NCBI GenBank assembly: GCA_035559535.1
Contig: DATMBG010000034.1
Location: forward strand, 1 to 64,000
Direction of reading: 5' to 3'
DNA length: 64,000 nucleotides
DNA from: Candidatus Limnocylindrales bacterium
Lineage (GTDB): Bacteria; Moduliflexota; Moduliflexia; Moduliflexales; JAUQPW01
In this document: positions 16,901-25,667 of the stretch, piece by piece
How positions within the stretch are numbered: position 1 is the first letter of the stretch
Layout: every line of letters starts with the position of its first letter
The notes under the pieces: model-generated
Told to the model about the DNA's origin: nothing
The model's input: only the letters and a program-made list of their open reading frames with translations
Databases searched by the model: none
Translations under genes and position numbers: made by a program

Positions 16901-17253
16901 GTTAAAGCTCCAGCCTGATTAAAAAACACACCTGCAAAGAACACAAAGAAGACGTGGAGAGGCGGAAATATAAAGACCAAAACCCAATCTGATCTCTCTA
17001 CGTCTCGCAGTGTGGCCTTTGTAGTGACTCAATAGCCTGTTATGCCACAACCCAACCCAGAAATGGTATTATCATGCCTTTGCAGGGTCTTCAAGCAAAA
17101 ACTAATAAAAGAATTCTTGACGAAACTTTTTTTTATCTGCATATTTATAATTTACTTAACTTCCTTTTTCATAAAATTCCATAAAACCACCTTAACACCT
17201 CTGACCGACATCCGTCACGGGGAGAATTGACCTCCTCTAGGGAGAAGACGCAT

Positions 17254-18036
17254 ATGAAAGAAAATAAAGTAAAAAAAGCTTTAAAAGAAGGAAAGGTTAC
17301 CCTGGGAACGCTGGTTGATTTTGTTCGTACTCCGGCGATTGCAACGATGATGAAAGCCATAGGATTCTCCTGGATTATTATCGATTCAGAGCACTCCGGT
17401 TTTTCCATGGAAACCATTGCCGATATTACCCAGATGGCCCGCGGGGTGGATCTGGTACCCATTGTACGGGTCCCTACCCAGCATTATGACCCCATTTACC
17501 GCTATCTGGATATCGGGGCCATGGGTTTATTGATTCCCCGAATTGAAGAGCGGAAGGTTTTAGAACGTATCGTTCGAGAGACCAAATATTATCCCCTGGG
17601 AGAGCGTGGGATGTCACCCCATAATGCCCATTCGGATTTTAAGAAATGGAAAAATATCATGGAGGACACGGCCCGGCTCAACGAGGAAACCATGCTGGTT
17701 TTACTCATTGAAAGCAAGAAAGCCGTAGATAATCTGGAAGATATGTTGCAGGTTAAGGGGGTAGACGTCTGCCATGTGGGGGTTTTCGACCTCTCCCAGT
17801 CTTTGGGACTTACCGGAGATATTCATCATCCGGAAGTTACCGCCTGTATCGAGCATGTAATCCAGGTCTGTAAAAAAATGGGTGTAGCCCCTGGGGTTAC
17901 CACTTTCGATGTGGAAGTCACCAAAAAATGGATCGATAAAGGGATTCAATTCATCAATTATGGACATGATACGGGATTTTTATTTATGGTGGAAAAACAT
18001 ATCCAGGAACTCCAGGGATATATAAACAAACTCTAA
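17254..18036 (+). CDS. HpcH/HpaI aldolase family protein
   Basis: IDSEHS, LDIGAMG, YYPLGERG, IES and DLSQSLG motifs. Confidence 0.9.
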   Translation: MKENKVKKALKEGKVTLGTLVDFVRTPAIATMMKAIGFSWIIIDSEHSGFSMETIADITQMARGVDLVPIVRVPTQHYDPIYRYLDIGAMGLLIPRIEERKVLERIVRETKYYPLGERGMSPHNAHSDFKKWKNIMEDTARLNEETMLVLLIESKKAVDNLEDMLQVKGVDVCHVGVFDLSQSLGLTGDIHHPEVTACIEHVIQVCKKMGVAPGVTTFDVEVTKKWIDKGIQFINYGHDTGFLFMVEKHIQELQGYINKL

Positions 18037-18060
18037 CAGGTTAGAATTGATAATTGTGGA

Positions 18061-18089
18061 TTGACAATTTTCAAGGAATAACCGATAAT
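18061..18089 (+). promoter_or_regulatory. Sigma70-type promoter of the arg operon
   Basis: TTGACA-17 nt-GATAAT, followed by a GAGGAGG RBS and TTG at 18121. Confidence 0.6.
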
Positions 18090-18120
18090 TGGAGAGAATT
18101 TCATAGAGGAGGATTCGGAT

Positions 18121-19143
18121 TTGAAAATCAGAGCCCATAAAATTGCTTCGGTTACGAGAAATTTAGTCTCACAGGAAATGGAGATAACCGATGAGATGGA
18201 AGTCAGGGAAGGCAATCTGATAGTTGTAAAGGCCTTGGAAGAAAAGCTGGTCTATGACAGAATTGAGTTAACGACCGGAAGAATGGCCAAGGTTGCCAAA
18301 GATGATATTATTGTCGGAGCTTTAGGGGGAAGAAAAGCGTTGAAGGGTTTTGTGGGAAAGATTCCCGAATCTATTCGGCGCGGGGATATTCTTCATATTT
18401 TAAATCTGGGAGGTGTCATTGGTATCGCAACCTCCGGCAATCCTGAGGTCGGAAACCCTCTCCGGGTAGAGGTGCTTGGAATGCCGGTGGTTAACGGGAA
18501 AATCGTTCATATCAGCCAGGGAGCTATCCCCTGGAGTTCATCTCTCACAAACTGCCCTCCTTTGGTGGTTGTGGCCGGTACCTGCATGAGTGCCGGAAAG
18601 ACTCAAGCCGCCACAGAAATCATCCACAAACTGACCGAAAAAAAATATCGTGTGGTAGGGGCGAAGGTGACCGGGGTGGCCTGTCTAAGAGATACCCTTA
18701 ATATGCAAGATCATGGGGCTCTGGCCGCACTGAGCTTTTTAGATGCGGGTCTTCCTTCAACAGCCCACATTACCAACGTGGCTCCCGTAGCTAAAGGACT
18801 CTTTAACGAGTTGAGTAAATTAAATCCGGATGTTATCGTGGTCGAACTGGGCGATGGAATCGTCGGAGGTTACAATGTAGGCTCTTTTTTGAAAGACCCC
18901 GAGATTCAGAGTTATAGTCAAGTCTATGTCATGTGCGCCAATGACCTGGTAGGAGCCTGGGGAGCCGTGGAACTTATGAAGCAGTTTTATTTGGAGATCA
19001 CGGTGATGACGGGTCCTGCCACCGATGCCGAGGTAGGTAAGGAGTATATCGAGACCCACTTGAAAATCCCCGCTGCTAACGCCCGGCTGGAGCCGAGGAG
19101 ATTAGCCGAGATTGTAGAAAACAAGTTGAACAGTAAAGGATGA
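18121..19143 (+). CDS. DUF1611-like P-loop protein, first gene of the arg operon
   Basis: VAGTCMSAGKT, AKVTG, FLDAGLPST and VELGDG motifs typical of DUF1611-related proteins. Confidence 0.7.
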   Translation: MKIRAHKIASVTRNLVSQEMEITDEMEVREGNLIVVKALEEKLVYDRIELTTGRMAKVAKDDIIVGALGGRKALKGFVGKIPESIRRGDILHILNLGGVIGIATSGNPEVGNPLRVEVLGMPVVNGKIVHISQGAIPWSSSLTNCPPLVVVAGTCMSAGKTQAATEIIHKLTEKKYRVVGAKVTGVACLRDTLNMQDHGALAALSFLDAGLPSTAHITNVAPVAKGLFNELSKLNPDVIVVELGDGIVGGYNVGSFLKDPEIQSYSQVYVMCANDLVGAWGAVELMKQFYLEITVMTGPATDAEVGKEYIETHLKIPAANARLEPRRLAEIVENKLNSKG

Positions 19144-19193
19144 GGATGTTGTTCGTTGGAAAGGATAACCGACAACGGACAATGGACAGTTTT

Positions 19194-20228
19194 ATGATCA
19201 AGGTCAGTATTCTGGGTGCTACAGGCTATACAGGTAGTGAGTTACTTCGATTTTTGCTCTTCCATGAGCAGGTCGAGGTCGTTAAGGTGACTTCCCGTAC
19301 AGATATCGGAATTCCCGTGGGCCAGGTGCATCGAAATTTATATAAGCTCACGAACCTGACCTTCACCGAAGAGAACATAGAAGAGATCGTCGAACTTTCC
19401 GATGTGGTTTTCCTGGCCCTTCCTCATGGACAGGCTCTGGAGAAAGTACCTCAGATCTTTCAGGTAGCCAAACAAAAGGACATTAAGGTCCTGGATCTGG
19501 GAGGAGATTTTCGTCTTAAAGATCCCCAGGTTTTTGAGAAATATTACAAACTCAAACATACGGCCCAGGAGTTTTTAAAAAAATCGGTCTATGGCCTGAC
19601 CGAATTTAACCGGGACGAGATACGCAAATCGAATTTAATTGCCTGTCCGGGATGTTTTCCTACCGGAGCGCTGCTGGCCTTACTCCCTCTGGCCAGGGAA
19701 AATCTGCTAACCGGAGACGTCATCATCAACTCGGCCACAGGGTCTTCAGGGTCCGGAGCTACACCCTCCGAAGGAACCCACCATCCCGAGCGGGCCTATG
19801 ATTACAAAGCTTATAACCTTTTCTCCCATCGCCATCAACCTGAAATTCAACAAGAACTGGAGAGATTTAACAAGAATCCTATTGAAGTCACCTTAACGAC
19901 CCATTCCGCTCCTATGGTCCGAGGTATTTTTACCACCGTCTATACCCGCTTGAGCAAGGAGATTTCTGAAGATCAGCTCAGAGATCTTTATAAGGGGTAT
20001 TATGAAAAAGAACCTTTCATCAGACTGGTGGATCAACCTCGTGCCGCTGTGGTTGCCGGGTCCAATTTTTGTGATATCAGCATAGCCAGTCGGGGTCGAA
20101 AGGTCATTATTAATTCGGCCCTTGATAATCTGGTCAAAGGAGGGTCCGGTCAGGCTGTACAAAATATGAACTTAATGTTCGGACTTGACGAAAAGTCGGG
20201 ATTAGGTTTTCCGGGAACACATCCTTAA
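19194..20228 (+). CDS. argC: N-acyl-gamma-glutamyl-phosphate reductase
   Basis: GATGYTG, LALPHG, PGCFPT, HRHQPEI and DNLVKGGSGQAVQNMN motifs. Confidence 0.95.
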   Translation: MIKVSILGATGYTGSELLRFLLFHEQVEVVKVTSRTDIGIPVGQVHRNLYKLTNLTFTEENIEEIVELSDVVFLALPHGQALEKVPQIFQVAKQKDIKVLDLGGDFRLKDPQVFEKYYKLKHTAQEFLKKSVYGLTEFNRDEIRKSNLIACPGCFPTGALLALLPLARENLLTGDVIINSATGSSGSGATPSEGTHHPERAYDYKAYNLFSHRHQPEIQQELERFNKNPIEVTLTTHSAPMVRGIFTTVYTRLSKEISEDQLRDLYKGYYEKEPFIRLVDQPRAAVVAGSNFCDISIASRGRKVIINSALDNLVKGGSGQAVQNMNLMFGLDEKSGLGFPGTHP

Positions 20229-20358
20229 TAGAGACGTAGGGTATAGGGACGCGGAGACGCGGGGACTGTGGGACACGGAGGTAGGGGGACACGTCTTCCA
20301 GTCCCAAAGATGCTGCGCCCCCGCATTCCAGAATCCCTATTTCTCCACGTCGTTGTAA

Positions 20359-21516
20359 ATGAATTTAGCAGAGCTCATCTCCCTGGAGGATAGGTATCAG
20401 TTATTGACGTACAAGAAATTCCCCCTGGATGTAGTCAGGGGAAAAGGGAAGTATGTTTATGACTCAGAAGGCAAGGAGTATCTGGATTTATACGGCGGTC
20501 ATGCCGTTGTTTCTATTGGACATTGCCATCCTAAATTAGTTAAAGCCATTCAAGATCAGGCCGAGAAGCTGATTTTTTACTCTAACGCGGTCTATAGCCC
20601 GATCCGTGCCGAGTTGAGTAAGTTGCTGGTAGAGATAGCCCCTAAAGGAATCGGAGCGGTGTTCTTCAGCAATTCGGGAGCAGAAGCCAATGAAACCGCG
20701 CTTAAGATCGCCAGGAAATTTACAGGTCGGGAAGAGGTTATCTCCCTGGAGAACTCCTTCCATGGACGAACTGTTGGATCGTTGAGTGTGACCGGGGCAA
20801 AAAAATATCGGGATCAGGTAAGGCCTTTATTGGATTGCAAGTTCGTTCCATTTGGAGACCTGGAAAGTGTTCGTAACTCCCTCAGTGAGAAGACTGCGGC
20901 GGTCATGGTAGAAGCCATTCAAAGCCTGGCAGGTGTTTATATGGCCAAACAGAGTTATTATCAAGGACTTCAAAAACTCTGTAAAGAAAAGGGGGCCCTT
21001 TTAATTTTTGATGAGGTTCAGACTATGCCGGGTCGCACAGGAGCCATGTTTGCCTGTAATAACTGGGAGGTTACGCCGGATTTGATCACCACGGCCAAAG
21101 GAATCGCCGGTGGAATTCCGATGGGAGTCACTTTTGTCAAAGAAGAAATTGCAAAGACCATCACCTATGGAGAGCAAGGCTCTACCTTTGGAGGTGGTCA
21201 AATAGCCTGTGCAGCTTCTAAGGCGACTCTGGAAGTTATCCAGGAAGAAAAGCTGGTGGAAAATGCCCGGTCTGTGGGGGAATATGCCCTCAAAATTATT
21301 TCAGAGGTTCCCAGGGTTAAAGAAGTTCGAGGACTGGGCCTGCTCATTGGAGTGGAAACAGATCTTCCTGGTGGAGAAGTCCAGAAGAAACTTTTATCTA
21401 AAGGAATTTTGGTAGGAACTTCCGACCATCCTAAAACGATTCGATTATTGCCGCCCCTTATCATAGAAAGGACAGATATAGATCGGTTTACCCATGAGTT
21501 AAGAAAAATCTTATAA
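20359..21516 (+). CDS. argD: Acylornithine aminotransferase (class III PLP)
   Basis: NSGAEANE, FHGRT, FDEVQT and TAKGIAGG motifs; operon context. Confidence 0.9.
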   Translation: MNLAELISLEDRYQLLTYKKFPLDVVRGKGKYVYDSEGKEYLDLYGGHAVVSIGHCHPKLVKAIQDQAEKLIFYSNAVYSPIRAELSKLLVEIAPKGIGAVFFSNSGAEANETALKIARKFTGREEVISLENSFHGRTVGSLSVTGAKKYRDQVRPLLDCKFVPFGDLESVRNSLSEKTAAVMVEAIQSLAGVYMAKQSYYQGLQKLCKEKGALLIFDEVQTMPGRTGAMFACNNWEVTPDLITTAKGIAGGIPMGVTFVKEEIAKTITYGEQGSTFGGGQIACAASKATLEVIQEEKLVENARSVGEYALKIISEVPRVKEVRGLGLLIGVETDLPGGEVQKKLLSKGILVGTSDHPKTIRLLPPLIIERTDIDRFTHELRKIL

Positions 21517-21579
21517 GATAAGATCTCCAAGGAATGAACCACGCCGGTTGGTTAAAACTTCGGAGGTCTGGAAGGAATA

Positions 21580-22596
21580 ATGACCTACACAAACTTTAAA
21601 GGTAGACATTTTATCAATACTCAAGACTGGACACGCGAGGAATTGGAACAGCTCCTGGAATTGGCTATAGATATGAAGCGACAGCCGTTCCGGAAATCTT
21701 TGGTCAATAAATCGCTCCTGCTGCTTTTCTTTAATCCCTCTCTCCGGACCCGAACTTCGTTCCAATTAGGTATGCATCAACTGGGAGGAACGACCGTGGT
21801 TCTCAACATGGGATTAGAGGTTTGGAATCTGGAGGTTGAAGAGGGGGTGGTTATGGATGGAAAAGCCGCGGAACATATCAAGGAAGCTGCGCGGGTCTTT
21901 TCCAGATATGGGGATATGATCGGGGTCCGAAAATTTCCGGATCTTGTGGATTGGAAAAAGGAAAAACAAGATGCCGTTATTCAGGCTTTTGTCAAATGGG
22001 GAAGTGTTCCCGTTATCAACATGGAATCCCACCTCTACCATCCCTGTCAGGCTATGGCGGATATGTTAACAATTCAGGAACACCTGGGAGGATTTAAAGG
22101 ACGAAAGTTTCTTCTGACCTGGGCCTATCATCCCAAACCTCTTCCGACCAGTGTTCCCAATTCAGCCCTGCTGGCTGCAAGTAAAATGGGAATGGATGTT
22201 GTCCTGGCCCATCCCAAGGGATATGACCTGGATGAAGATATTTTAAAAGCGGTTCGAGAAAATGCCGCCCTGAATCAAAGCTCATTTCAGATCGTTCATA
22301 CTATGGAAGAAGGCTTCCAAAACGCCGATATTGTTTATGCCAAAAGTTGGGGGGCTCCAGCTTTTTATGGGAATTGGGACGAAGAAGCCAAACTCCGAGC
22401 CGAGTTGAAGGACTGGCGGGTTACCCAGAAAAGAATGCAGCTTACCCGGAATGGTAAGTTTATGCATTGTCTTCCGGTTCGAAGAAATGTAGTGGTAGAC
22501 GATGAGGTTATCGATGGACCCAACTCTATCGTCTACGATGAAGCCGAAAACCGACTCCATGTACAAAAAGCAATATTAGAGGCGATATTAAGTTAG
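21580..22596 (+). CDS. argF': N-acylornithine carbamoyltransferase (AOTCase/SOTCase family, succinyl-type residues)
   Basis: FFNPSLRTR, MDGKAAEH, HPCQ, WAYHPKPLP and HCLPVRRNVV motifs. Confidence 0.9.
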   Translation: MTYTNFKGRHFINTQDWTREELEQLLELAIDMKRQPFRKSLVNKSLLLLFFNPSLRTRTSFQLGMHQLGGTTVVLNMGLEVWNLEVEEGVVMDGKAAEHIKEAARVFSRYGDMIGVRKFPDLVDWKKEKQDAVIQAFVKWGSVPVINMESHLYHPCQAMADMLTIQEHLGGFKGRKFLLTWAYHPKPLPTSVPNSALLAASKMGMDVVLAHPKGYDLDEDILKAVRENAALNQSSFQIVHTMEEGFQNADIVYAKSWGAPAFYGNWDEEAKLRAELKDWRVTQKRMQLTRNGKFMHCLPVRRNVVVDDEVIDGPNSIVYDEAENRLHVQKAILEAILS

Positions 22597-22662
22597 ACGA
22601 AAGGGACGAGGCAAAAGGAGAACATCTTTGTCCCTTTTCCCTTTCGCCTTTTACCTTTGTAA

Positions 22663-23586
22663 ATGAAAGACGTATCTATTTTAAGGACGGCGCTCCCTTA
22701 TATCCAACGATTTAGAGATAATATTTTTGTCATTAAGCTGGGAGGAAATGTAATTATCGATGTTAAAAATCTAGATCTGGTCACAGAGGAAATTACTCTA
22801 CTCCATCTGGTAGGAATTCATATTGTTGTGGTTCATGGCGGGGGAAAACAGGCCGATGAACTTCTGGAAAAACTCCATCATACTTCGAGGAAAATAAACG
22901 GACGCCGGGTCACCGATGATGATACGTTGGAAGTAGCCAAGATGGTTTATTCGGGTAAGATCAGTACCGAAATTGTCTCCGCTCTGAGGCGGCATGGAGC
23001 CAAAGGCGTAGGCCTTACCGGAATTGACGGGGGACTGATTCAGGCCAGAAGGAGACCCCCTGTAAAGGTTTTTAATAAAGAAACCGGTCAGGAAGAAATG
23101 GTAGATTACGGACATGTGGGCGACATTGAAAAAGTAAACCCGGATCTCCTTTTAACCCTGGTTAATGCCCGTTATATACCGGTTGTGGCGTCATTGGGAG
23201 CCGATGAAAAAGGGAATGTTTTAAATATCAATGCCGATGTCATTGCAGGGGAGATTGCCAAAAGCTTAAAAGCCGACAAATTGATCAGCATGAGCAATGT
23301 ACGCGGGGTTCTTCGAGATATAAATGATCCGGATTCCTGTATCTCTTCCTTAAGTGTCCGAGAAGCTCAAGAACTCATTCAGAAAGGGATTATTGCCTCA
23401 GGTATGCTCCCTAAAATCCAATCCTGCATCGCAGCGGTGGAAGGTGGAGTACGGCGTGCCCACATTATCGATGGGACCAAGCGCGACTCGCTCCTTAAAG
23501 AAATTTTCAGGCCAGAAGGCGAAGGCACCATGATTGTAACCGATTCAGATAAGGAAAAATATTTAATGGAAGAATTCAAAGGATAG
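22663..23586 (+). CDS. argB: Acylglutamate kinase
   Basis: VIKLGG, VHGGG, GRRVTD, NINAD and GMLPK motifs. Confidence 0.93.
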   Translation: MKDVSILRTALPYIQRFRDNIFVIKLGGNVIIDVKNLDLVTEEITLLHLVGIHIVVVHGGGKQADELLEKLHHTSRKINGRRVTDDDTLEVAKMVYSGKISTEIVSALRRHGAKGVGLTGIDGGLIQARRRPPVKVFNKETGQEEMVDYGHVGDIEKVNPDLLLTLVNARYIPVVASLGADEKGNVLNINADVIAGEIAKSLKADKLISMSNVRGVLRDINDPDSCISSLSVREAQELIQKGIIASGMLPKIQSCIAAVEGGVRRAHIIDGTKRDSLLKEIFRPEGEGTMIVTDSDKEKYLMEEFKG

Positions 23587-23661
23587 TGAGCGATAGGTCG
23601 TGGGCCGTGGATAGTTAAACCCACTTTCTGCTCACGGCCCACGATCTATCACCCACTGCTT

Positions 23662-24396
23662 ATGCCTCCACTTATAGGTATTACCTGTTCAACCACGATC
23701 GGATCTTCCTGGAGTGTAAATTCTTTAGGACGTCTTCAGGACGCCGTTTATCGGAACTATAGTCAGGCCATCGAGTTTTGCGGAGGGGCCCCGATTCTCA
23801 TCCCTGTCATCAAAAAAACAACGGCCTTAGAAAGTATCTTATCGAAGCTGGATGGATTGATCTTATCGGGGGGCAACGATATACATCCTCGGTTTTATGG
23901 AGAAGAACCCCTACTCAAATTAGAGGCCATCGACGCAGAAAGAGATGTGATAGAAATCGAGCTAACCCGATTAGCTTTGGAAATGGATATTCCCATTCTG
24001 GGAATTTGTAGAGGGATCCAGGTCTTGAATGTGGCAGGTGGGGGAACCCTTTATCAAGATCTCGTTTCTCAAAAACCGAATTGTTTGAAGCATCGTCAAG
24101 AAGCCGATATGCAGGTTCAAACCCACCGAATTCGCCTGGACCGGGATAGTCTACTTTATCAGATTTTTAAGAAAGACGAAGTCTGGGTCAATAGTCGACA
24201 TCATCAGGCGGTTAAAGATATAGCCCCCGGTTATCGGATTGCAGCGGTTGCCAGTGACGGAGTTATCGAGGGAATTGAAGATCTTTCCCGTAAGTTCGTA
24301 GTGGGAGTCCAATGGCATCCGGAGGGAACATGGGAAGTAGATGAAGATTCTCAGAATCTGTTTCGTGCATTTGTGGAAGCGGCTATACGGGCTTAA
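23662..24396 (+). CDS. Gamma-glutamyl-gamma-aminobutyrate hydrolase family (peptidase C26)
   Basis: LSGG.DI.P..YG, GICRG.Q, NSRHHQ and GVQWHPE motifs. Confidence 0.9.
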   Translation: MPPLIGITCSTTIGSSWSVNSLGRLQDAVYRNYSQAIEFCGGAPILIPVIKKTTALESILSKLDGLILSGGNDIHPRFYGEEPLLKLEAIDAERDVIEIELTRLALEMDIPILGICRGIQVLNVAGGGTLYQDLVSQKPNCLKHRQEADMQVQTHRIRLDRDSLLYQIFKKDEVWVNSRHHQAVKDIAPGYRIAAVASDGVIEGIEDLSRKFVVGVQWHPEGTWEVDEDSQNLFRAFVEAAIRA

Positions 24397-24399
24397 ATC

Positions 24400-24714
24400 C
24401 CTCCAAGGGTTCGATTCTACCCTTTAAAGGTTTTGATGCGTTATTTTCCTCAAATTCCCCAACGACTTCCAGATTCCCTGCAATACCATAATTTACTACT
24501 AATTGAGGCCTGATAAGGGTATTTTCCCCTCTGTACGTTCTAGATTGAGATATCCCAGCTCAATCTCCATCTCTTTAGGATCGACTCCAGCGGCATCGGT
24601 CGAGATGAAAGGTCGATACCCCCAGGCAGCGACGGGAAGGAACAGTATGAACAGGAGAGGTAAAGTTCCTTCCCCGAAGAAGACGCCTATCATCCGAACT
24701 CCTTTCCTGTTCAA
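24400..24714 (-). pseudogene. Frameshifted, truncated exported/outer-membrane protein remnant
   Basis: Signal peptide plus YRPFISTDAA..E.ELG; a shift near 24520 continues as TLIRPQLVVNYGIAGNLEVVGEF and then breaks off. Confidence 0.6.
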
Positions 24715-24728
24715 GCTCCCTCCTTATT

Positions 24729-25667
24729 TTACCCTCCAAATTCTTTTTGGGTACTGAGTGCGGCTTTTATCCCTTTTGCGAGGTCACTGGTTGAGCCAAC
24801 ACCCCAGTAATGAAGGAATACCGTGCGAGGGGATTCCATAATCATGTGGTTATGGAGAGCAACAATGTTAATCTTAGCACTACGAAGCGCCTTGAGCACA
24901 GGTTGAACCTCATTCTCAAGCATAACAAAATCACCGTCCACCACAGCTTTATCATCGCTTCCAACAAAGGCAGCCCAGGTGTTCACTCCCATTTCATTTC
25001 CGATTTCGTAGCCCTCCATCTTTGTGGTTCGACCAACAGTGATTTTATAAACTCCCTGGTTCATCTCGCCTTTCATACCGAGGATATCTTCAATTTTTTT
25101 GGGATCCAGCGTGGTATTGACAGAATCCAGATTAGCTTTAGGCATCTCACTTTTACCGCCGCTGGTCTCATTAATTTTGGCAAACACTTTTCCAACTGCC
25201 GTTGCGAGTTTCTCCTCATCGCCCATTCCACCGATATGCAAGAACATGACTTTTGGGGAATCCCAGAAGAAGTGGTTGTGTAGAGCAGTAACCTCCAGAC
25301 CATTGCTTAAGGCAACATCTATAACTGCATTAACCTGGTCTTCAAGCACAACATTATCGCCCATAACCATGGTACGGTCACCGACTTTTTTAAACGCTGC
25401 CCAGGAAGTAAGGCCCATAGGCGGGGTTATTTTTACACCTGCTGCGGTGACTTGGAGATCAGTGCGCGGAAGGCTAACTTTAAATACGCCTTCCTTTTCG
25501 TTGAGTTTTCCCTTTGCACCTGTGAGTTTCTCGATTTTAGCGGTATCGAGCTTTTCTTCTGCCAGGCCTGGTGTAACGGTCCAGGAAAGTGCCAGGAATG
25601 AAAAGGCAAAGACCACCCCCACCAGGGAGATATACACGCTTTGTATGTTTACACATCTTATCTTCAT
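24729..25667 (-). CDS. Exported protein with tandem DUF1259 (LppY/LpqO-like) domains
   Basis: Two repeats of WAAF...GD...ALHNH...FLH. Confidence 0.85.
   Translation of the reverse strand: MKIRCVNIQSVYISLVGVVFAFSFLALSWTVTPGLAEEKLDTAKIEKLTGAKGKLNEKEGVFKVSLPRTDLQVTAAGVKITPPMGLTSWAAFKKVGDRTMVMGDNVVLEDQVNAVIDVALSNGLEVTALHNHFFWDSPKVMFLHIGGMGDEEKLATAVGKVFAKINETSGGKSEMPKANLDSVNTTLDPKKIEDILGMKGEMNQGVYKITVGRTTKMEGYEIGNEMGVNTWAAFVGSDDKAVVDGDFVMLENEVQPVLKALRSAKINIVALHNHMIMESPRTVFLHYWGVGSTSDLAKGIKAALSTQKEFGG

Follow-up and report, generated by a model that had tools for sequence, protein, structure and literature searches.

We examined a 64,000-nucleotide stretch from a Candidatus Limnocylindrales bacterium (assembly GCA_035559535.1, contig DATMBG010000034.1, positions 1 to 64,000; hereafter the window), in which an arginine operon opens with a gene, here gene X, whose product, X, belongs to no named family. 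Comparative data suggest that X is probably a non-GNAT N-succinyl-L-glutamate synthase that starts a linear arginine pathway. X would acylate L-glutamate, most likely giving N-succinylglutamate, which ArgB, ArgC and ArgD, encoded beside X, would turn into N-succinylornithine; ArgF' would carbamoylate this product to N-succinylcitrulline, and an unassigned deacylase would release citrulline for ArgG and ArgH, encoded elsewhere. By analogy with the acetyl-CoA-dependent D-glutamate N-acetyltransferase DgcN, we infer that succinyl-CoA would be the acyl donor and that the P-loop of X would bind the nucleotide part of CoA.

A role of this kind is already in print. The GapMind 2026 preprint (section 11 and Appendix 2) predicts that the Steroidobacter protein ACG33_RS14135 is an N-succinylglutamate synthase. 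An earlier sequence-only reading of the window had proposed a non-GNAT glutamate N-acyltransferase and knew of no description of such a role; in this it had been anticipated, and the locus is therefore of value as a further member of a predicted family and as an exception to explain, not as a discovery. The printed prediction was made independently and agrees with our reading of X. Literature searches on succinylglutamate synthase led to this preprint alone as a description of an X-type family, and those combining DUF1611, acetyltransferase and glutamate returned nothing.

What is new here is a genus that has both X and an intact ArgJ and no ornithine carbamoyltransferase, next to a sister family with a classical argC-argJ-argB-argD operon. 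With X, ArgF' and ArgJ together and ornithine carbamoyltransferase missing, the window's genome is a natural test case. Of the Acidobacteriota and Planctomycetota that we sampled, roughly one quarter to one third have a member of the X family. If the assignment is true, the committed step of the arginine pathway is carried out in a large and widespread family by a fold unlike that of every characterised N-acylglutamate synthase, a gap that metabolic reconstructions of soil and water bacteria often have is closed, and DUF1611-like P-loop proteins gain a second assigned function.

Association of X with arginine operons and ArgF'

We collected 80 X loci from species-representative genomes, mostly from Blastocatellia or Pyrinomonadaceae and thus closely related rather than independent. 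In 75 of them, X is followed downstream by an argC match. Three of the other five sit on contigs that end within 360 nt of X, and two, both from Planctomycetota, lack argC; in one of these, argG immediately precedes X. Clustering of open reading frames (ORFs) gave the order argR (61 loci), argG (47), X, argC (70), argD (61), argF' (42) and argB (45), with argH near X in 18 loci; an overlap filter lowers these counts. Acidobacteriota loci follow the order argR-argG-X-argC-argD-argF'-argB. In P0162, a metagenomic protein of 626 residues found on four contigs, an X domain (42% identical over residues 39–302) is fused to a kinase domain that resembles ArgB, with 32% identity to the ArgB of the window. 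Known synthase-kinase enzymes follow the same domain logic, and the fusion mirrors the kinase-plus-transferase architecture of GNAT synthases.

We then compared the distribution of X with that of the other enzymes of the pathway, using Fisher tests whose p values are too favourable, given that related genomes are not independent samples. Among 121 Acidobacteriota genomes, 29 have a strong X match (at least 283 bits) and 28 have ArgJ, with none having both (p = 2e-4); among 101 Planctomycetota genomes the counts are 33 and 43, again with no overlap (p = 4e-11). X and ArgJ are mutually exclusive in these 222 genomes from two phyla, as alternative solutions would be. ArgJ was likewise not found in five named X carriers from several phyla. 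Classical ArgA is present in one of the 121 Acidobacteriota genomes, one that has ArgJ, and in none of the 29 X carriers. ArgF' exceeds its cut-off in 25 of the 121; X accompanies it in 23, and a 24th has an X fragment beside argF' (p = 4e-17). Seen from the other side, 23 of the 29 X carriers have ArgF' above cut-off and six do not. This sample includes two unpublished genomes (G036 and G061), without which there are 27 X carriers, none with ArgJ, and X is found in 22 of 24 ArgF' genomes. A weak partial X match was seen in four more Acidobacteriota genomes and an X fragment in one, and 64 of the 121 have neither a strong X match nor ArgJ.

The acyl group was approached through ArgF'. The best alignments of the window's ArgF' are to chains of the N-acetylornithine carbamoyltransferase from Xanthomonas. 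Three of these chains are distinguished by a single column, which holds A, S or E; it is chain residue 112, which equals residue 92 if 20 extra N-terminal residues are a tag. At the column of Glu92 in the Xanthomonas enzyme, the window's ArgF' has Ala97, and 52 X-linked ArgF' proteins have Thr (50) or Ala (2, one of them from the near-identical locus L005) and never Glu. According to Shi et al. 2007, as quoted in the GapMind 2026 preprint, the substitutions E92A, E92P, E92S and E92V shift the specificity of ArgF' to N-succinylornithine. An ArgF' with Ala in place of the acetyl-setting Glu92 therefore points to succinyl intermediates.

The sequence-only reading is borne out on the coordinates and gene order of the operon (X, argC, argD, argF', argB), on which the ORF at 18121–19143 and the family models agree, and on the conserved arginine linkage of X homologues. 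The anti-correlation with argA and argJ that it named as a check holds for the sampled phyla, with ArgJ in 0 of 29 and 0 of 33 carriers and ArgA in 0 of 29, but fails in the window's own genus, where X and ArgJ coexist.

Sequence family and predicted fold of X

X has no Pfam or NCBIfam match at E ≤ 0.001, and no GNAT family appeared in either scan. With the Pfam threshold relaxed to E ≤ 10, residues 147–178, which hold the P-loop, are all that touches PF07755 (DUF1611_C; E = 0.078, 12.8 bits against a cut-off of 25). A CbiA match has E = 0.18, and some homologues show weak AAA_26 or CbiA matches. PF17396 (DUF1611_N), carried by all true DUF1611 proteins that we examined, was not found in X even at E ≤ 10, and NF041892, the DgcN equivalog model (cut-off 480), did not match X. 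A precomputed PF07755 match is present in many members of the X family.

The family is large. A word-indexed search with X scored 2901 proteins at E ≤ 0.001, the top matches outside the window's genus being 54–60% identical, labelled Planctomycetes, Thermoanaerobaculia, Gemmatimonadetes and Wallbacteria, and all annotated as hypothetical. An exhaustive search of 50%-identity representatives returned 1321 clusters at E ≤ 0.001, of which 799 reach 1e-10 and 136 reach 1e-30. Across an alignment of 31 members, about 80 positions are invariant, in the N-terminal as well as the C-terminal half; they include the Walker A loop GTCMxxGKT (in X, G153-TCMSAG-K160-T161), DHGA, ELGDG on an acidic strand, CAND..AWG, GP.TD and PAANA. 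One metagenomic protein of 939 residues, P0265, found on a single contig, joins an X-like domain to a methyltransferase and a TauD-type dioxygenase, which suggests a use outside arginine synthesis.

The AlphaFold model of X (pLDDT 90.9) has an all-beta N-terminal domain (residues ~1–137) and a P-loop alpha/beta C-terminal domain (~146–340). Foldseek matches to the model are led by SRP GTPases and dethiobiotin synthetases (E ~1e-6). In a VIA comparison of the whole model, the DUF1611 protein 2g0t came first (Z 17.4, rmsd 2.9, 182 aligned), the DUF1611 protein 2obn sixth (Z 16.3) and DgcN 7xrj 33rd (Z 15.3, rmsd 3.1, 183 aligned), the last tied with unrelated P-loop enzymes; HypB, SRP GTPases and Fe–S cluster carriers are also among the fold matches. 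The N-terminal domain modelled alone (pLDDT 91.4) had no Foldseek match in the PDB at E ≤ 0.001, and its best Z in VIA-align against 48,161 chains was 3.2, with none at or above 5, which is no proof of a new fold. The invariant residues of this domain (residues 2–138, 18124–18534) include GRxA, LGxRxALxGFxG and LNxGGxxG.

DgcN (PF07755 plus PF17396; NF041892; 7XRJ) shares with X a P-loop alpha/beta domain of the same class and has glutamate as its substrate, whereas X lacks significant sequence or profile similarity to it and has an all-beta domain in place of DUF1611_N. The term 'DUF1611-like', used in the sequence-only reading, fits the P-loop half of X alone; X stays below the sequence cut-offs of DUF1611 and has a different N-terminal domain. 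The window's genome encodes a true DUF1611 protein as well (350 residues; 226 bits to PF07755, and 252 bits to the DgcN model against the cut-off of 480). Its gene lies between murE and murG (G000:C55; L093:1474-2526, minus strand), a neighbourhood that may link it to D-glutamate or cell-wall metabolism. Dethiobiotin synthetase and the synthetase domain of CTP synthase share the C-terminal fold and the GxxxxGKT loop with X, but X has no family-level sequence match to them, carries the additional N-terminal domain and stands in a different genomic context. The GNAT N-acylglutamate synthases, which comprise classical ArgA with its short and fused variants and the N-succinylglutamate synthase of Bacteroides, have the reaction and the pathway position that are proposed for X; X differs from them in having no GNAT domain and an unrelated fold. 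ArgJ, the ornithine acetyltransferase/glutamate N-acetyltransferase, is also unrelated to X in fold and works by acetyl cycling.

From its matching context and fold, X very likely belongs to the family of ACG33_RS14135. In the available text of the preprint, that protein is called a very distant DgcN homologue whose homologues are 'virtually always' within arginine operons, and its assignment is argued from context, the lack of a Pseudomonas-type ArgA, a Foldseek match to 7XRJ and position 92 of ArgF'. As described there, its family resembles X in being hypothetical and without a named family; in lying in operons with argB, argC, argD, argF', argG, argH and argR; in its remote fold likeness to 7XRJ; in never occurring with a Pseudomonas-type ArgA; and in having neighbouring ArgF' proteins without Glu92 (A, P, S, V or I, T). 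The two differ in that X is the first gene of its operon in the window, whereas the Steroidobacter protein lies between argG and argC, and in that the window's genome also has ArgJ, which the available preprint text does not mention. The name Steroidobacter was not found in cluster look-ups or in a homologue search from a Pseudomonadota-labelled member; Atlas neighbours of X include clusters whose commonest phylum is Pseudomonadota.

ArgJ in the window's genus and alternative roles for X

The phylum-level group of the window is represented by nine genomes in our collection, two from the window's genus and seven from a sister family. Both genomes of the genus have X, ArgF' and ArgJ and no ornithine carbamoyltransferase above cut-off, their two other carbamoyltransferases being aspartate carbamoyltransferases. 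The genus is the only case of X and ArgJ coexisting among the genomes examined. In the window's genome, ArgJ scores 456 bits with one 'bifunctional' model (cut-off 351) and 444 with the other (cut-off 298), and it carries an ATML motif, the self-cleavage site. The gene (G000:C15:10600-11742; L087:4547-5746) lies away from the arginine operon and adjoins carA-carB; upstream of it are a 118-residue ORF and two divergent ATP-grasp genes of the D-Ala-D-Ala-ligase-like kind. We considered ArgJ as a binning artefact and rejected this, the second genome of the genus having it too; correlations of tetranucleotide profiles with the genome mean (0.98 for contig C15 and 0.97 for C34, median 0.987) give no hint of a foreign origin for either contig. 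Here ArgJ might release ornithine that is used elsewhere, offer a second, redundant entry to the pathway or take N-acylcitrulline as its substrate.

No classical ArgA or short GNAT synthase exceeded its cut-off in the window's genome, which has a single copy each of argB, argC and gene X. A hidden GNAT synthase was also rejected: the two weak matches to the ArgA model, an ArsN2 acetyltransferase and another small GNAT, are both below the short-synthase cut-off. The better of them (G000:C25:44321-44587; L003:1306-1848) is an ArsN2-type arsenic-resistance acetyltransferase (143.9 bits, cut-off 125).

In the sister family, a true ornithine carbamoyltransferase is present in all seven genomes and ArgJ in five, within a classical argC-argJ-argB-argD operon in the three genomes inspected. 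Six of the seven have just an X paralogue, 29% identical to X. At four loci (L088:8198-9238, L089:7806-8843, L090:7659-8699 and L091:7822-8868) the paralogues are about 346 residues long, 27–29% identical and without a Pfam family, and none of the four adjoins arginine genes. In both loci whose neighbours were scanned, the paralogue stands beside a D-Ala-D-Ala-ligase-like ATP-grasp gene and a class II aldolase gene. Similar weak X paralogues coexist with ArgJ in other phyla (G050, G140 and G220).

Several results weigh against X as the first enzyme of the pathway. One is the intact ArgJ in both genomes of the window's genus: the argument from a missing step fails for this genome because ArgJ could itself make N-acetylglutamate. 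The sequence-only reading had named a canonical argA or argJ elsewhere in the genome, together with a lack of acyltransferase activity or of conserved arginine linkage, as findings that would count against it; such an ArgJ is present, and the linkage is strongly conserved. Kinship confounds the co-occurrence counts. The exclusion of ArgJ is compatible with a role at the first step and equally with one in deacylation, because ArgJ also takes the place of the deacylase and no clear ArgE can be assigned: ArgE exceeds its cut-off in one of five carrier genomes, and its best match in the window's genome scores 222 bits against a cut-off of 297.7. Thr, the residue of most X-linked ArgF' proteins, is not among the Glu92 substitutions quoted in the preprint, whose available text offers its assignment as a prediction. 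The sequence homology of X to DgcN and DUF1611 proteins is weak. A phmmer search and a profile search of the PDB returned nothing relevant, BLASTP found no match between X and the genome's own DUF1611 protein, and an hhalign comparison of the two families was not significant (probability 2.8%, E = 0.016, 167 columns), with the Walker A loop, the acidic strand and a C-terminal motif in register. CTP synthases and dethiobiotin synthetases tie with DUF1611 proteins in the VIA comparison (Z 15–16.6), and the N-terminal half, rich in invariant residues, has no DUF1611 counterpart.

These ties bear on another chemistry for the same pathway role. ATP-dependent activation of a carboxyl or carbonyl oxygen is the chemistry of dethiobiotin synthetase and of CTP synthase, and X could be a candidate ATP-dependent ligase that converts free succinate (or another acid) to an acyl phosphate and passes it to the amino group of glutamate without acyl-CoA. 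The C-terminal domain of X matches these enzymes as well as it matches DUF1611 proteins (Z 15.3–17.4), dethiobiotin synthetases are among the top Foldseek matches, the Walker A loop and the ELGDG strand are invariant in 31 sequences, and one source labels an X homologue 'dethiobiotin synthetase'. We nevertheless consider such a ligase unlikely, as DgcN, the sole characterised glutamate-acting relative in this fold class, is named an acetyltransferase by NCBIfam and in the preprint, our account of its cofactor use being second-hand. Quite unlikely, too, is a CoA-independent, ATP-driven succinate:L-glutamate ligase that would combine a P-loop domain of the dethiobiotin-synthetase kind with a beta domain lacking a solved counterpart and would, in the window's genus, work beside ArgJ, with shared ArgB, ArgC and ArgD feeding a succinyl branch (through ArgF' to arginine) and an acetyl branch (through ArgJ to free ornithine).

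The exclusion of ArgJ would fit equally well if X were a deacylase or transacylase acting on N-acylcitrulline, and so standing in for ArgE or for ArgJ in its transferase function, and the lack of a clear ArgE in carrier genomes, reported in the available preprint text for Steroidobacter too, is in keeping with this. Such a role is nonetheless very unlikely: no amidohydrolase is among the P-loop fold matches of X, the fusion partner in P0162 is ArgB, which acts at step 2, and not ArgF' or ArgG, and M20 homologues that are possible deacylases occur in the window's genome, one of them at G000:C37:67381-68481, and in four of the five carriers. It is still less probable that X is an accessory nucleotide-binding protein kept in arginine operons by chance, for instance one that serves in regulation, in assembly or as a HypB-like metallochaperone. 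HypB, the SRP GTPases and the Fe–S cluster carriers among its fold matches, and the 29%-identical branch outside arginine loci, would suit this; the tight co-occurrence with ArgF' and the exclusion of ArgJ in two phyla are instead the pattern of a replacement enzyme, identities of 54–60% across phyla with about 80 invariant positions in both domains suggest a catalytic site, and the GTPase specificity motif was not seen in the 31-member alignment, in which no dedicated motif search was made. A non-GNAT acyltransferase acting on glutamate, as proposed from the sequence, is the reading best supported by the comparative data; the link to DgcN from which it was drawn is weaker than supposed, covering the P-loop half only, tying with ATP-dependent ligases and lacking a significant profile match.

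The operon in the window

The operon and its signals are listed in Table 1. The N-terminus of X at its TTG start agrees with the family consensus MKI..K, and the stop of gene X overlaps the ATG of argC (ATGA). The promoter noted earlier in front of the operon is present as a consensus match and is the top sigma-70-like site within 17000–25000; this interval holds 12 such sites against a shuffled mean of 11.2, so their count is not above chance. As also noted earlier, the window has neither argA nor argJ: the genome's sole ArgJ match is on another contig, and within the window the ArgA model finds only ArgB.

Table 1 Features of the arginine operon and its surroundings in the window
Feature	Position	Strand	Basis
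Sigma-70-like promoter TTGACA-17 nt-GATAAT	18061..18089	+	11/12 consensus match only
Ribosome-binding site GAGGAGGA	18106..18113	+	Read from sequence; 7 nt 5' of gene X TTG
Gene X, predicted N-succinyl-L-glutamate synthase, two-domain protein, 340 aa	18121..19143	+	ORF, alignment, structure model
argC	19140..20228	+	TIGR01850, 398 bits, cut-off 233.6
argD, N-acylornithine aminotransferase	20359..21516	+	TIGR00707, 415 bits, cut-off 410
argF', N-acylornithine carbamoyltransferase, predicted succinyl-specific (Ala97)	21580..22596	+	NF003384, 485 bits, cut-off 288
argB, N-acylglutamate kinase	22663..23586	+	TIGR00761, 243 bits
Peptidase C26/class I glutamine amidotransferase-like hydrolase	23662..24396	+	PF07722, 234 bits; 76 nt 3' of argB

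Upstream of gene X lies an HpcH-type aldolase gene. At the other end, the C26 hydrolase gene is a possible member of the operon in the window; as a conserved member it was rejected, being 3' of argB in one of the 80 related loci, the near-identical L005. The hydrolase resembles gamma-glutamyl-GABA hydrolase, and a succinyl amide is similar to a gamma-glutamyl amide minus its amino group. By this analogy, the C26 hydrolase could be a candidate N-succinylcitrulline deacylase.

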